A program made the position numbers and the translations under genes. The notes under the pieces are model-generated. The model was given only the letters and a program-made list of their open reading frames with translations, ran no database searches and was not told the origin of the DNA. DNA of 64,000 nt from Escherichia coli (GTDB lineage Bacteria > Pseudomonadota > Gammaproteobacteria > Enterobacterales > Enterobacteriaceae): the NCBI RefSeq assembly GCF_041248615.1, contig NZ_CP158425.1. One strand, 5' to 3'. This document shows positions 2,320 through 62,254 of this stretch, one piece after another. The stretch's first letter is position 1. Every line of letters begins with the position of its first letter.

Positions 2320-3501
2320 ATGTTAAGCAGTAAAAAAAGGAAGTCCCCTACAAATATCAAAGAATCGCTCAATGATAACGCTGACCGTTTTTATAAGATG
2401 TTTCGCATTCATACCACGGCAAAAGTTGCTATGTCGCTAATTGCCATGACCGCTGTAGGGTTTTCTTTCTACAATCTTTACGAACAATGGCAGGACGCTG
2501 AAGGGAAGAAAGACCATATAGCTGTAATACGGATTTCTGGCGAGATGGGTACCGGCTCGGAAACGGGCGATGGAACAGTGATCGCAACAGCTCTTGCCAA
2601 AGCTTACAATAATCCCCATGCCAAAGCAGTTATTATCGAGGCAGAGTCAGGTGGTGGTGGTCCCTCTGACGCCATCATTATTTACCGCCAGATAAACGCG
2701 CTTAAAAACCACCAGCCACAGATTGAACGCGTATCAGATGCCGGTTGCTCTCTTTCATCTGTAGCCGCTGACAAGAGTAACAAAACCGGGAGCACAGAAC
2801 GTGGCGATGAAGCACGGTCGAAGCAAAACTCCCTCGAAGTACTCTCCAGCGGTACCGGTCGTTTTTTCTCTGATATCGCAGACTCATATAAACCAATCAT
2901 CGTTAGTGTGAAAGGCATATGCGCATCCGCATGCTATTACGCGGTATCGCCCGCTGATGCAATTTATGCCGACAGTAATGCCCTGATCGGTTCTATCGGT
3001 GTGCGTATGGACCACTGGAATCTGTCAGAGATCATGAGCACAGTAGGCGTCAAGAATGAGCCCCTTACGGCCGGTGAGTTCAAAGATGCTCTTGACCCCT
3101 TCCACCCATTGTCCGATTCAACGAGGGAGTTCATGCAGAAGGAGATCCTGAACACGATGCATGAAAAATTTATAACTGATGTTGAACTTGGACGGGGTAA
3201 AAAGCTTCTCTCGCGTCATGATGCCGATGCTGTTTCTCTCTATTCAGGCCGTGTATGGCCAACACCTCAGGCAGTTAAGTACGGCCTGGTGGATGGAGAT
3301 CTTACGTCAGTAGAGATCCGTACACGTCTTTCAAAAATGTACTCCACTGACACGTTCAAAAACTACAATGAGCCTCATCGTAATCTCCGTTCTGCACTCG
3401 GCATGCTGATGAGCCTGTCTTCAAATATTGAGAGCCTTACCGGTACCACTACCCGCTTGGTAGAATCTGTTAATGCCACCAGCTACCCCTCTGTGAGGTA
3501 A
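2320..3501 (+). CDS. S49 family (SppA-like) serine peptidase with N-terminal membrane anchor
   Basis: The KGICASACYYAVSPADAIYADSNALIGSIGV block matches the SppA/ClpP-fold serine motif region. An N-terminal TM segment is present. A low-complexity insert lies between the two conserved halves. Confidence 0.6.
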   Translation: MLSSKKRKSPTNIKESLNDNADRFYKMFRIHTTAKVAMSLIAMTAVGFSFYNLYEQWQDAEGKKDHIAVIRISGEMGTGSETGDGTVIATALAKAYNNPHAKAVIIEAESGGGGPSDAIIIYRQINALKNHQPQIERVSDAGCSLSSVAADKSNKTGSTERGDEARSKQNSLEVLSSGTGRFFSDIADSYKPIIVSVKGICASACYYAVSPADAIYADSNALIGSIGVRMDHWNLSEIMSTVGVKNEPLTAGEFKDALDPFHPLSDSTREFMQKEILNTMHEKFITDVELGRGKKLLSRHDADAVSLYSGRVWPTPQAVKYGLVDGDLTSVEIRTRLSKMYSTDTFKNYNEPHRNLRSALGMLMSLSSNIESLTGTTTRLVESVNATSYPSVR

Positions 3502-8231: not shown

Positions 8232-8274
8232 AATACCTCCTGTTTAGAAGTATTATATGTAAACAGCCTCAGCG

Positions 8275-8286
8275 GCTAATAACCCG
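8275..8286 (-). promoter_or_regulatory. Conserved promoter-like motif (minus strand reads ..GGGTTATTAGC)
   Basis: About 45 nt upstream of the ATG at 8231. Confidence 0.4.
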
Positions 8287-20088: not shown

Positions 20089-20137
20089 ATCGCCTCCTCT
20101 GTTAATGTGAAACAAATATAACAAAGTGGCTTACCCG

Positions 20138-20151
20138 GCTAATAACCTGAG
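20138..20151 (-). promoter_or_regulatory. Conserved promoter-like motif (CTCAGGTTATTAGC)
   Basis: About 50 nt upstream of the ATG at 20088. Confidence 0.45.
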
Positions 20152-27773: not shown

Positions 27774-27840
27774 AGTTGACTCCTTGATTATTTAATTAAT
27801 GTATTTGATGAGAAGATCATAACAAACACACTACTACCAA

Positions 27841-27854
27841 CTAATAACCTGAAG
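27841..27854 (-). promoter_or_regulatory. Conserved promoter-like motif (CTTCAGGTTATTAG)
   Basis: About 68 nt upstream of the GTG at 27773. TTCTAA sits at the -35 position with a 16-nt spacer. Confidence 0.45.
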
Positions 27855-32897: not shown

Positions 32898-32944
32898 AAA
32901 ACCTCCTTTTCATCTGTACTTATTATACTGTTACCCAACCCCCA

Positions 32945-32957
32945 GCTAATAACCTCC
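32945..32957 (-). promoter_or_regulatory. Conserved promoter-like motif (GGAGGTTATTAGC)
   Basis: About 48 nt upstream of the ATG at 32897. TTCTGA sits at the -35 position. Confidence 0.45.
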
Positions 32958-33065
32958 CAGCAAATTTTCAGAAAAAAAACACCGCCTTTTATTTAAGATT
33001 GAACACATCCTTTTTAAATACCAACAATGATTATGAAACCACAATGTAAGTGAAGCGCCATTATG

Positions 33066-33080
33066 GAAAAGTAACTTTTG
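33066..33080. promoter_or_regulatory. Palindromic operator-like site, copy 8
   Basis: GAAAAGTAACTTTTG. Confidence 0.5.
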
Positions 33081-33304
33081 TGCAGCTCATAAATTTTATT
33101 TATTAGTTACGTTCCTTTGTCTTGTGGTCGAAGTTCATCAGGCGAGGCCTAAGAAGAATATGTGTGGTTTCAGCCAATGCGGTGATCGGGCATTATAATT
33201 TGGTCGGGCTATTATACGTGGGTAAAGGTAGTGGTAGGGAGAGGATCAGGTTAAATTGCATTTTCCCGGTTGCCTTCCCTGGCCTACCGGTTTCAGGTCA
33301 GACG

Positions 33305-34486
33305 CTAAGACCAGCGGTAATACTTAAAGTAGTCCTCATTTACAGCCAAAAACTCCCTTAAACCGTTCATTAATCCCTTTTCAAACGCTGTAACGATAAA
33401 CCGGTATCCGTCCAGTGTTTCAATGTAGTAGATCCCGCCCGGTGTTATTCCAACATGCAACACCTCGGCTGTCATCATAAACTGGCCTTCCGGAAAATCA
33501 TGCGACAGGTATATAAAACCCGTCGTGGCCGGTGCGGGTGTGGCATTCACTAAGACACCGTTAAACTGCTGCCCGTGCCTCGCCGGTACAAGCTCACTTC
33601 CCCTGGTTGACTTATCGAGCAGCCCCTTAACATCTTTTTGCTCTTTAGATGAGGTATAGCCCCGCACATCACTCCCATCACCTGGGCGAGAGCCGGTGCC
33701 GACATGTGCAAGACGACGGTAAGCGCTGCGCATATTGATGTGGCAGGATGCCCCGGCTCTACCCTGAAGCCTTACGCCAAAATCTTCGCAAAGTAATAAA
33801 ATCTGACGTAGCTGGTGTTCATACACGGACGCAGAAAGTGAAAGGTTGAAACTGGAAAAGGTCAGTTCTAAAACCTTTTCCCGTTTGTCATTGAAATGTG
33901 CTTCCAGCCTGATGATTGGCTTTTCCGACATTGCAAAAGCTTTGTCCGTTGCTCTGTACCGGCATTCATCTCCGAAACATTCTTCAACAACGCTGGCTAT
34001 AACCGTGTCGTGATCGCCATCTTCCGGAGCTGGCACAAAGATTTCAAATTGTGCCGGTGTCTCCGGCTCCAGCAGAACGGGATATAAACGCGGAGAATTA
34101 AGCAATGCGCATTCAGAATTAATGAGCTTAACCCAGGCGCTTTTGTCGTCCGGATCCTTAAGCTGCTGTCCAAGGTTATCGCAAAAGTCTACTATCTGAC
34201 GGGTATGCTCATCCGTGACTGCACAGATCAGGTTAAGACCATGCGTGGCCATACTCAATTCCCGGGTTCGGGACTGGGAATTGATCGACCAGGGGTTAAG
34301 TGAAAGCGAAATAGGGCTTATGGAAGGGACGACCGTCTCATTCTGCAAATCTGTAAGCTGGCAGTTCGCAGTAGGCTTCGGGGAAAGGGTACTAAATATG
34401 TAACTTGCCTGTTGTTTAGTACTGGCCTGGATATAAAACATCGCGTCCATGCTTGTATCCCGGGATGAAATTGAAAATAGCTTCAT
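33305..34486 (-). CDS. Hypothetical 393-aa protein directly downstream of the HigB-like toxin
   Basis: The start is 8 nt after the toxin stop, with a TAAGG RBS. No helix-turn-helix or other motif recognised. Confidence 0.55.
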   Translation of the reverse strand: MKLFSISSRDTSMDAMFYIQASTKQQASYIFSTLSPKPTANCQLTDLQNETVVPSISPISLSLNPWSINSQSRTRELSMATHGLNLICAVTDEHTRQIVDFCDNLGQQLKDPDDKSAWVKLINSECALLNSPRLYPVLLEPETPAQFEIFVPAPEDGDHDTVIASVVEECFGDECRYRATDKAFAMSEKPIIRLEAHFNDKREKVLELTFSSFNLSLSASVYEHQLRQILLLCEDFGVRLQGRAGASCHINMRSAYRRLAHVGTGSRPGDGSDVRGYTSSKEQKDVKGLLDKSTRGSELVPARHGQQFNGVLVNATPAPATTGFIYLSHDFPEGQFMMTAEVLHVGITPGGIYYIETLDGYRFIVTAFEKGLMNGLREFLAVNEDYFKYYRWS

Positions 34487-34494
34487 TTTTAACC

Positions 34495-34791
34495 TTAATG
34501 GATGAGCGATTTATAGTCATGTGCTGACAAATGGACATTATGTGCGCCATCATTCCATTCAAAGAATAATCGATACTTAGAGTTTACTCGAATGGAGGAA
34601 TAACGGTTTGACGTCATTCTTAAGCGTTCATAACGCAAGCTGTTGGATAATAACTCCCGCTCACTCTGGACATTATCCAGCGTTTCGAGTCGACACAGAA
34701 TCGCGTTAATAATTTCAGAAGGAATACCTGCCGTTGTTTTTCCATTACGGAAGAACTTTTCAAGCCGTCTGTCTTTAAATGAATGGATCAT
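34495..34791 (-). CDS. HigB-like toxin (RelE/ParE superfamily, plasmid-maintenance killer type)
   Basis: MIHSFKDRRLEKFFRNGKTTAGIP...RLETLD...SIRVNSKYRLFFEWNDGAHNVHLSAHDY follows the MIKSFKHKGLKLLFEKG..GVP...RL..ID...SI.V...WRI.F....GDAY.L...DYH pattern of HigB killer proteins. GGAGG RBS. Confidence 0.65.
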   Translation of the reverse strand: MIHSFKDRRLEKFFRNGKTTAGIPSEIINAILCRLETLDNVQSERELLSNSLRYERLRMTSNRYSSIRVNSKYRLFFEWNDGAHNVHLSAHDYKSLIH

Positions 34792-34840
34792 AGTTCCTCC
34801 GTAATAATTGACCTTAAAATTAAATTAAAAGGGCTTTGAA

Positions 34841-35311
34841 TTAATGAATCCCTAAAATGCGGGCGGCGACTGCCAGCTGCTTATCACTTAACTGACGCTG
34901 GTGGGTTAAAGAAGACTTAAGGCTTTCCAGAAAATTATTACTGCTGGATTGCTGGGTGATTGCATCAACCATTTTTTGATGAGATCTGCACCATGCATTG
35001 AACGCAGAGTTGTGGGCGTTTTCAGTCCTCAAACGCTCGTTTTGCAAGGATGCTGACACTTTGCGGGCAGCTTGAGCATTAATGCGGTACAGCGCATTCA
35101 GCGTGTAAGAAGTGCGGGTCGTTTCGAGGCTGTAACCCGTGGCTTTACAAGCCATACAGCGACTTCTATAAAAATGCTTACGCTCTCCCCGACCATTGCA
35201 TTTATCGCAAAGAATACGAAAAGTATATTCCGCAGTACCTTTTACAGAATCAACACAGCGGATTTTTGCGCTGGAGATTTCAATTCCACTGCGATCATAA
35301 TATTTGGTCAT
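34841..35311 (-). CDS. Zinc-ribbon protein (CxxCxGxG type)
   Basis: CDKCNGRG...CMACKATG motif. GGAGG RBS. The promoter motif lies at 35365-35378. Confidence 0.55.
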   Translation of the reverse strand: MTKYYDRSGIEISSAKIRCVDSVKGTAEYTFRILCDKCNGRGERKHFYRSRCMACKATGYSLETTRTSYTLNALYRINAQAARKVSASLQNERLRTENAHNSAFNAWCRSHQKMVDAITQQSSSNNFLESLKSSLTHQRQLSDKQLAVAARILGIH

Positions 35312-35364
35312 AATGTGATTCCTCCGGTTAGTTCTGGAGTAATCATGACAGAATGAATCTACTG

Positions 35365-35378
35365 GCTAATAACCTGAG
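35365..35378 (-). promoter_or_regulatory. Conserved promoter-like motif (CTCAGGTTATTAGC)
   Basis: About 54 nt upstream of the ATG at 35311. Confidence 0.45.
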
Positions 35379-35745
35379 AGTAAATATTTTAAAAAAACAT
35401 TGAGAGAGGGTCTGCAAATTTATACACGAAGGATTCAAATATAATTTTGTTTAAAAAATTAAGAGCATTCTGAAGTAAAAGTGCATCAAAAAGCATTCAT
35501 GGATAAATCATGTACTGGTGCCAGCCATTTAAACGCGGGCATTGTTCCGGAGTGATTAAACGGTTTAGCATCATAGATTAAAACCAAAAGGAAGGCGTCC
35601 TTCCCGTCTCGGGAATATTACTTTCCCGTTTGCAATTTAAGAGCCACTTAATGAGAAAGTAATAATTAAGTCATGCTCAACTCTACATATTACATTGAGG
35701 ATGGCGTAACAGGGTACGGCATACTACCGCACCCTTCTGAAGAGC

Positions 35746-40566: not shown

Positions 40567-40579
40567 GAGGTTATTAGCT
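40567..40579 (+). promoter_or_regulatory. Conserved promoter-like motif (GGAGGTTATTAGC), rightward copy
   Basis: About 50 nt upstream of the ATG at 40629. TTTGAA lies 16 nt upstream of TATTAG. Confidence 0.45.
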
Positions 40580-40628
40580 CGTGCATCTGGATTGTTAATA
40601 TAAAGCCAACACAGAAAAGGAAAACAAA

Positions 40629-61537: not shown

Positions 61538-62254
61538 TTAACTGTCTTGGAGTTTATTTAACTTAAAAACTGTTATTGCAGCATAATTTTTCGAATCAAA
61601 TTCATAGAATTTTCTGACTTTTCCAGTCAAATGATAACGTTCACCCAATAAAATGTGATCCTGTTTATCGGCCGTTAAAGCGATCCCGTCATTTCTAACT
61701 TTACCAGTAAATGTAAAAAAATAACTCCCTTTACTTTTTGCGTACGCGGCCCTGACTTCAGTAAATGTTAGTTCAATGCTTATGACCTGGCCGATATTGT
61801 AGCTATGTTTTAAAATTTCTTGTTCATTTTCCGGAGTTTCAGACAACATCACATCAAAAGTTGTAAAGAAACAATCCAGCTGGCGTTCTGTCAAGAAACG
61901 GTTATTGTCTAATTGCGCCAATATACTATTAGAAAACTTAGTGTTAGCCTTTTTTGCTTTCTCAATAAGGACGTGGTTTCTGGATTTCCATGCTTCGAGT
62001 GTTGGGTTAACACGCAGTTCCGGAATGTTATCGAGAAAGGTAATTGGCTCTAGTGCCACTAATTTTTCAATAATGGGTCCAACTGTTTGTACCCCATGAC
62101 ACTTTTCACATAAATCAGCCCCTTTGTGGCCTGTGCCCGCACATTCGTTACATTCTCTTTCGATAGGTGCATAATAATTTCCATCTCCGTTAAGTGATAC
62201 ATTCACTGAGGCTGGTACCATATGACCATCAAGAGTAAAGAAAAGAGATTTCAT
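61538..62254 (-). CDS. Zinc-ribbon (CxxCxGxG) protein
   Basis: CNECAGTGHKGADLCEKCHG motif. Overlaps the upstream gene by 4 nt. Confidence 0.5.
   Translation of the reverse strand: MKSLFFTLDGHMVPASVNVSLNGDGNYYAPIERECNECAGTGHKGADLCEKCHGVQTVGPIIEKLVALEPITFLDNIPELRVNPTLEAWKSRNHVLIEKAKKANTKFSNSILAQLDNNRFLTERQLDCFFTTFDVMLSETPENEQEILKHSYNIGQVISIELTFTEVRAAYAKSKGSYFFTFTGKVRNDGIALTADKQDHILLGERYHLTGKVRKFYEFDSKNYAAITVFKLNKLQDS

Follow-up and report, generated by a model that had tools for sequence, protein, structure and literature searches.

The stretch of DNA analysed here (the window: 64,000 nucleotides (nt) of Escherichia coli contig NZ_CP158425.1, assembly GCF_041248615.1) is IncHI2 plasmid backbone and carries, on its minus strand, a conserved module of three genes around a HigB-type toxin. 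From 5' to 3' these genes code for a zinc-ribbon protein of 156 amino acids (aa; ZnR), for the HigB-like protein of 98 aa and for a protein of 393 aa (Big) without known family; all three open reading frames (ORFs) called in the first-pass annotation are present on this strand (Table 1). In our tentative reading, to which we give somewhat less than an even chance, the trio would be a non-canonical HigB module in which the N-terminal part of Big neutralises HigB and ZnR serves as a third component. That HigB is toxic, which proteins form the neutralising pair and which biological role the module has we infer from sequence comparisons.

The assignment of the 98-aa protein to the HigB type is supported at the profile level. 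The protein matches PF05015 (HigB-like_toxin) with 65.7 bits (E 5e-18; gathering score 27), its residues 4–88 covering profile positions 2–88 of 91; phrog_3066, 'toxin of TA system' (toxin-antitoxin, TA), is a second match (E 9e-18), and the protein aligns end to end with the Proteus vulgaris HigB structures 4mct and 4ypb. In P. vulgaris HigB the residues His54, Asp90, Tyr91 and His92 are critical (Schureck et al., PMC5027501). The equivalent residues of the present protein are E55, D92, Y93 and K94. The catalytic residues looked for in the first-pass annotation are therefore retained in the case of the Asp-Tyr pair and lost in the case of both histidines: across the HigB subfamily D92, Y93 and K94 are invariant, as is R74, and position 55 is either E or K. 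One explanation is that HigB does not arrest growth and is an attenuated or repurposed RelE-fold protein, for instance an RNA- or ribosome-binding regulator, that would need no antitoxin, the trio having another joint function in IncHI biology. The loss of H54 and H92 throughout the subfamily, a C-terminal extension of four residues, KSL(I/V)H, the lack of both a HigA and an operator palindrome, and a promoter class common to many non-TA operons would fit this explanation. RelE, however, cleaves by means of Lys, Arg and Tyr and requires no histidines, and a canonical relative with a HigA-type partner (P0042) has Glu at the H54 position as well. This relative, the gene of which is followed on the 3' side by an HTH_3 gene, shows what the normal arrangement looks like. 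Because of the RelE chemistry and of P0042, the residue pattern leaves the activity of HigB undecided. The invariant D92, Y93 and R74, the very strong constraint described below and the basic charge, which fit a ribosome-binding toxin, also speak against a repurposed protein, and we regard such a HigB as quite improbable.

HigB is not decaying and is under strong purifying selection. It is exactly 98 aa long in all ten lineages, and its ratio of nonsynonymous to synonymous substitution rates (dN/dS) against IncHI1 is the lowest of the three genes (0.04–0.05, up to 0.07 overall, compared with 0.08–0.10 for ZnR and 0.11–0.15 for Big). The protein is 100% identical within IncHI2, 85–90% identical to its IncHI1 counterparts and still 60% identical to that of the most distant lineage, a distance at which ZnR and Big have fallen to 34% and 30%. 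The suggestion of an orphan or decayed toxin was given up on account of dN/dS and of the constant length. With an isoelectric point (pI) of 9.4–10.3 HigB is basic, as expected for a predicted ribosome-binding protein of the RelE type. Two further clusters were inspected: P0035, with a HigB of 58% identity, lies on a contig that is too short to show gene context, and P0039, with a truncated HigB or ZnR, stems from a frameshift-rich long-read assembly and is uninformative.

The trio is found in the same order in IncHI2, in IncHI1A and IncHI1B, and in the lineages L009, L025, L026/L027, L006/L011 and L036. Its nucleotide identity amounts to 96–100% within IncHI2 and to approximately 70% for IncHI1A and IncHI1B, and the identity of Big decreases to 52, 48, 47, 39 and 30% in further genomic and metagenomic lineages. 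In a back-translated search with one genome per species, the HigB subfamily was detected in ten GTDB genomes, all ten of which contain the full trio. The spacing is likewise maintained: the higB stop codon and the ATG of Big are separated by 8–15 nt in every lineage (8 nt in the window), and the gap between ZnR and higB is 36–63 nt. The flanks are not maintained: the 5' genes differ in L026 and L027, L026 features an Ig-like gene 3' of the trio, and in L006 an HNH gene and others are located on the 5' side. The trio is intact despite these changed flanks and is a module, not a case of mere synteny. Of the possibilities raised for the locus at the outset, a neighbour acting as a non-canonical partner of HigB appears to fit best with a trio that is intact in all lineages and in all representative genomes.

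Big is truncated in two independent natural variants of the locus. On the IncHI2 plasmid TY20019p_286K of Salmonella Paratyphi B an IS21 element is inserted after approximately residue 249 of Big, and an IncHI1-like element integrated in the chromosome of Enterobacter hormaechei codes for a Big of 242 aa; HigB and ZnR are intact in both. In one further variant an ISApl1-mcr-1 insertion removed ZnR and HigB along with the initial two-thirds of Big. Note that the trio locus is a site of natural rearrangement in several sequences (L016, NZ_PP024953.1; L018, CP077392.1; L017, NZ_KX084394.1; L002, NZ_AP023312.1), and that an mcr-1.1 copy is located 2 kb 5' of the trio on the IncHI1B plasmid L002 (NZ_AP023312.1). 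A TacAT-like pair of a TacA1-type antitoxin and a GNAT acetyltransferase is present downstream of the trio in L009 (6295–7046), directly after Big, and in L025 (6401–7158), after a methyltransferase gene; TA-type genes thus gather in this section of the IncHI backbone.

The absence of a canonical HigA at the locus was borne out. The arrangement typical of higBA, a toxin gene followed by that of a small HigA with an XRE-type helix-turn-helix (HTH), was not found there. Big has neither an HTH nor a match to any other family in Pfam, NCBIfam, PHROGs and PADLOC, and a scan of 15 members of the Big family at E values of up to 10 yielded no family common to them. Known antitoxin domains (HTH, RHH, AbrB, Phd/YefM and Panacea/DUF4065, searched via Pfam) were found neither in Big nor in ZnR, the defence-system models of PADLOC-DB v2 gave 0 families for all three proteins, and none of the three belongs to a SecB or HigA family. 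Nor had a small HTH ORF been overlooked, as no alternative-frame ORF, in any frame, is conserved at the locus across eight lineages; an antisense ORF opposite the 5' end of higB is uninterrupted in some lineages only. HigB might instead be an orphan toxin that is neutralised in trans by a canonical HigA or another XRE antitoxin whose gene lies at a different plasmid site or on the host chromosome, and 'HigB-HigA' is indeed listed for IncHI2 plasmids in some papers (PMC6978640). However, the full PGAP annotation of the 241-kb plasmid pMS8345A contains no HigA-type gene, and its sole annotated XRE-type regulator is HipB-like and belongs to the adjacent HipA. An antidote encoded by the host is implausible because the plasmids live in many genera. 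Neutralisation in trans is thus hardly credible.

Big has been annotated inconsistently. RefSeq/PGAP calls vary between 315 aa (starting at Met79) and 381 or 393 aa (WP_164846946 and relatives), and the 315-aa calls are often named 'flavin reductase'. The 393-aa ORF is the right gene model since residues 1–78 are conserved as protein (dN 0.26 versus dS 1.13 between the window and IncHI1B, L002), with the motif MKLF.I..RD..DAMFYIQASTKQQAS.IF. The name flavin reductase is rejected: none of the 15 family members matched the FMN-binding split-barrel (Flavin_Reduct) or an NCBIfam model. The family is very small: 20 clusters were found among 5.8 billion proteins, and a profile search of 1.84 billion representatives gave 38 matches. 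No match to a known fold was obtained for ZnR or Big.

The AlphaFold2 (AF2) model of Big (predicted local distance difference test, pLDDT, 71; predicted template modelling score, pTM, 0.63) consists of three parts, namely four beta-hairpin-plus-helix modules within residues 1–240, a low-confidence linker and a beta-rich C-terminal domain. Residues 18–114 and 150–245 are homologous to each other according to hhalign (probability 96%, E 4.7e-9), and the N-terminal 245 residues therefore represent a tandem duplication. No homologues of this region were found outside the trio, and it is retained in both natural truncations that keep HigB. The C-terminal domain shows 56–72% identity where the remaining Big has 16–64%. 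It also occurs in stand-alone form, in proteins of 110–190 aa; homologues of 110–145 aa have the common motif F(D/N/S)GV..A...G..F.....F.DG..I.T.E(I/V)V..G....Y(I/V)ET..G.R(Y/F)L(I/V)...N..Y(F/Y)...(Q/R)WS, and this kinship was confirmed by reciprocal tblastn (E ~1e-7). In the two contexts inspected, a Vibrio chagasii plasmid and a metagenomic contig, no toxin gene is located beside the stand-alone gene; on the V. chagasii plasmid it lies 9 nt 5' of a Dcm methyltransferase gene. The domain represents an uncharacterised mobile domain family without a Pfam entry. It is dispensable in the two natural variants, which lack it and have intact HigB and ZnR.

On this basis we propose the following model. 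One promoter, of a class common to many IncHI backbone operons, would transcribe all three genes. HigB, with its RelE fold, would act as a ribosome-dependent mRNA endonuclease, and Big, probably translationally coupled to HigB, would hold it inactive through the duplicated N-terminal region, residues 1–245. The mobile C-terminal domain and ZnR may assist, for instance in regulation, in the binding of nucleic acids or in sensing, and the purpose of the module would be plasmid addiction and/or abortive defence. Big is favoured as the neutralising protein because its gene is in the position of higA and closely spaced to higB, and because residues 1–245 are the only region exclusive to this HigB, ZnR and the C-terminal domain also occurring elsewhere without it. 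A further reason is charge, as Big is acidic in eight of ten lineages (pI 5.2–5.9; repeat 2, residues 131–245, pI 4.3–5.1 in eight of ten), opposite to the basic HigB, whereas ZnR is basic throughout. The retention of residues 1 to ~245 in the natural truncations points to the same region.

Several observations weigh against this model. Two of the four critical P. vulgaris residues are replaced (H54 by E or K, H92 by K), and HigB could be catalytically weak or repurposed. The co-occurrence of the three genes is in part inheritance, since all lineages are backbones of the IncHI type. Big is basic in the L006/L011 lineage (pI 8.2–8.9), and the charge argument fails there for this reason. The ribosome-binding site of Big is weaker than that of HigB, which is unusual for an antitoxin needed in excess, and ZnR, first in the operon and with a strong ribosome-binding site, is in the classic antitoxin-first layout. 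A palindromic operator typical of TA autoregulation was not found (positions 35300–35620; an AT-rich palindrome only), the structure models are of moderate confidence only (pLDDT 71 and 68), and literature searches, including the accessions of the trio, yielded no functional study of these genes.

The zinc-ribbon motif attributed to the upstream protein is present in ZnR, as one exact copy (C35DKCNGRG) plus CMAC. The match of ZnR to DnaJ_CXXCXGXG (PF00684) is below threshold (20.6 bits versus 32.7; homologues reach at most 26.3), and the protein has a single zinc centre of the DnaJ or anti-TRAP kind instead of a DnaJ domain. Its pI is 9.3–9.8, both halves are basic in every lineage, and the structure model is of high confidence in the C-terminal helical region. 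The whole of ZnR resembles the N-terminal half of proteins of ~310 aa from Pbunavirus F8, SPM-1, an Erythrobacter phage and BcepNazgul (phrog_4046); the two of these that were scanned, from F8 (ORF012) and Erythrobacter phage L02, end in DUF6011. In the F8 and Erythrobacter loci inspected, no annotated toxin neighbours the ZnR homologue. ZnR looks more like a nucleic-acid-binding or adaptor component, since it is uniformly basic and belongs to a phage and plasmid family that is used without toxins. The window also codes for a 238-aa 'zinc finger-like' protein with the layout of ZnR (61538–62254, minus strand), a weak collinear paralogue (pairwise E 0.009) that has the CxxCxGxG ribbon, a helical region and a ...L(S/T)(D/E)(K/R)QL motif in common with it; the gene is located between ParB-like genes, beside a Dam methylase.

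Alternatively, ZnR could be the antitoxin of a classic antitoxin-first operon, in which case it would bind DNA via its basic or zinc-ribbon part and HigB via its C-terminal helices, and Big would be unrelated or accessory. ZnR is small and first in the operon, its gene has a strong GGAGG ribosome-binding site, it accompanies this HigB in every case, its C-terminal helices are confidently modelled, and it is intact in the natural truncations of Big. A zinc-binding precedent would be MqsA, reportedly the antitoxin of a RelE-fold toxin. The uniformly basic charge and the occurrence of ZnR relatives without HigB are the features by which Big was favoured over ZnR, and we consider an antitoxin function of ZnR unlikely.

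Another alternative to neutralisation by Big with ZnR as a third component is a true tripartite system that requires both neighbours, for example with ZnR as chaperone, adaptor or regulator of a Big-HigB complex, by analogy with toxin-antitoxin-chaperone systems, or with a defence-type sensing via the C-terminal domain of Big or via ZnR that releases HigB. All three genes are under purifying selection (dN/dS 0.04–0.15) and are never found apart in about nine lineages despite rearranged flanks; the DnaJ/anti-TRAP-type zinc ribbon is a protein-binding module, and the build is modular, a trio-specific part being combined with two mobile domains. In addition, TA genes are found among methyltransferases and other establishment-type genes in the region, a setting that is discussed for plasmid TA genes (PMC11541004). 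Against this stand the absence of PADLOC matches in the three proteins and of a SecB-like or other chaperone family, the dispensability of the C-terminal domain of Big in two natural variants, and the fact that no trigger or sensor function can be derived from the sequence. We judge this alternative to be unlikely to the same degree as an antitoxin function of ZnR. A wider form of the proposal, which we find doubtful, would make the trio a new tripartite HigB class with an acidic, duplicated-fold antitoxin that possibly binds one HigB per repeat, and with the C-terminal domain and ZnR coupling toxin release to a signal such as plasmid loss, the entry of a competing element or phage infection.

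The notion of one conserved promoter in front of all three genes is supported, as far as sequence patterns can tell, by the recurrence and conservation of a promoter-like element upstream of ZnR. The motif noted earlier at 35365–35378 is part of its GGTTATTAGC element. The blocks TTATTAGCC and TCTGTCAT(G/T)AT are conserved in front of the trio, both in IncHI2 and IncHI1 and in lineages further away, and at least five other operons of the window are preceded by the decamer of this element, equally spaced from a TATAAT-like hexamer. In the shared architecture, which lies immediately 5' of many small IncHI backbone operons, the decamer GGTTATTAG(C/T) occupies the -35 position; exactly 17–18 nt separate it from the TATAAT-like hexamer, in front of which TGT is frequently seen. 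In the window we count seven matches to GGTTATTAG-N16-19-YANNNT, against an expectation of 0.05, and the element type is shared with at least six other operons. A generic sigma-70 scan scored the element 5' of ZnR below threshold, because the decamer, not TTGACA, fills the -35 position. These results suggest a promoter class shared by IncHI backbone operons that is possibly factor-dependent, and the decamer sites may represent the regulon of a plasmid or host factor. Literature searches on the decamer yielded nothing relevant.

Positions 33000–35700 of the window are 100% identical to E. coli pMS8345A and to many other plasmids of ~200–290 kb. Parts of the locus were found in 1,098–1,308 plasmids of Escherichia, Salmonella, Enterobacter, Klebsiella and Citrobacter, almost all of them conjugative (MOBH/MPF_F), and at least 80% of the trio is present in 1257 of the 1308 plasmids that have any part. 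A GGAGG ribosome-binding site lies 5 nt 5' of higB. The 5' neighbour of the trio is a gene for an Ig-like protein of 805 aa (DUF4165/Big_3), and the hairpin behind it presumably marks the 5' boundary of the transcription unit. On the 3' side follows a long one-direction array with small hypothetical genes, DNA methyltransferases, a PAPS-reductase-family gene and hok. The whole array of ~36 kb (window ~4500–40300; pMS8345A 8978–44795) consists mostly of small hypothetical genes on the same strand and also holds two DNA methyltransferases, the PAPS-reductase-family protein, an HNH endonuclease, DUF957, DUF3085 and DUF6012 proteins, and hok. It is reminiscent of regions devoted to plasmid establishment or to anti-defence; we do not claim it as the IncHI leading region, the mobI and MobH relaxase genes being ~40 kb distant.

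Table 1. Coordinates of the trio, of the parts of Big and of related features (window positions unless a lineage is named).
Feature	Coordinates	Strand	Remarks
ZnR (156 aa)	34841–35311	-	basic; N-terminal zinc ribbon C35xxC38xGxG, C52xxC55; C-terminal four-helix region, aa 79–153
HigB-like toxin of the RelE/ParE superfamily (98 aa)	34495–34791	-	basic; PF05015 match
Big (393 aa)	33305–34486	-	position held by HigA in higBA loci; without known family
Big aa 1–245	33752–34486	-	tandem duplication; unit of ~115–130 aa of beta-hairpin-plus-helix modules
Big aa 246–298, linker	33593–33751	-	pLDDT 35–55; 16% identity to the L006 lineage
Big aa 299–393, mobile beta-rich domain	33308–33592	-	ends in YRW(S); most conserved part of Big
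Stand-alone C-domain homologue	L012 4935–5498
Stand-alone C-domain homologue	L044 ~2829–3164
Promoter-like element of the trio (decamer type)	35342–35374	-	GGTTATTAGC, 17 nt, TGT-CATGAT (extended -10-like hexamer); end 31 nt 5' of ZnR ATG
Decamer-type promoter-like site	8252–8284	-
Decamer-type promoter-like site	20115–20147	-
Decamer-type promoter-like site	27816–27849	-
Decamer-type promoter-like site	32922–32954	-
Decamer-type promoter-like site	40569–40601	+
Near-copy of the promoter-like architecture	~16530	-
Near-copy of the promoter-like architecture	~21424	-
Terminator-like hairpin after the upstream Ig-like gene	35589–35605	-	7-bp stem, 4 GC pairs, then TTTTGGTTTT; consensus match only

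The module can be compared with known TA systems. With higBA of Rts1 and P. vulgaris it has the Pfam family, a basic toxin and a similar toxin size in common (98 aa here, 92 aa there), and it is similar to the Rts1 system in its plasmid location, in a presumed partner gene that follows the toxin gene within a few nt and in the active-site D-Y pair. In contrast to Rts1 higBA, the presumed partner is an acidic multi-domain protein of 393 aa without HTH instead of a XRE-HTH HigA of ~100 aa, a zinc-ribbon gene invariably precedes the toxin gene as a third member, other residues stand in place of H54 and H92, and no palindromic operator was found. Toxin-antitoxin-chaperone (TAC) systems are likewise tripartite HigB-type operons, and ZnR has a chaperone-type motif (DnaJ CxxCxGxG); however, a SecB-like protein and a HigA are lacking here, the third gene is located upstream and not downstream, and the DnaJ-motif match of ZnR is below threshold and restricted to a single zinc centre. 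MqsR-MqsA likewise pairs a RelE-fold toxin with a zinc-binding protein and departs from the standard TA architecture. The MqsA gene, though, lies 3' of the toxin gene and codes for a C-terminal XRE-HTH, whereas the ZnR gene lies on the 5' side and its product has no detectable HTH and an unrelated sequence. Modular non-canonical antitoxins are large multi-domain proteins fused to accessory or sensor domains. The present module shares with them the pairing of a common toxin family with a partner that combines a system-specific part and domains from other contexts, and differs from them in that no HTH, RHH, AbrB, Phd/YefM or Panacea/DUF4065 domain was detected in Big or ZnR.

The toxin family as such is well known, and annotations already list the gene as a RelE/ParE toxin. 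New are the strictly conserved arrangement of three genes, the lack of a HigA, two families of partner proteins for which no fold or function is known, and the duplication and the mobile C-terminal domain of Big; given the growing list of non-canonical antitoxins this is not conceptually surprising. If our model is true, TA biology would gain a multi-domain partner without HTH and a third component for a toxin family that is among the best studied, and a function would be assigned to two protein families, one of which is mislabelled as 'flavin reductase' in RefSeq. Should the trio represent a new tripartite class, both the antitoxin fold and the function of the trio, in maintenance or defence, would be new for the core backbone of IncHI resistance plasmids. 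The appeal of the module stems in part from the simple experiments by which the question could be settled, and in part from the importance of IncHI plasmids in the clinic. Plasmids of the IncHI1 and IncHI2 types are vehicles of multidrug resistance in typhoid Salmonella and of mcr-1 and extended-spectrum beta-lactamase (ESBL) genes in E. coli, Salmonella and Enterobacter, and over 1,250 of the sequenced plasmids covered by the search contain the trio. If it is an addiction or defence system, it would aid the persistence of IncHI plasmids and may thus represent a target for plasmid curing.

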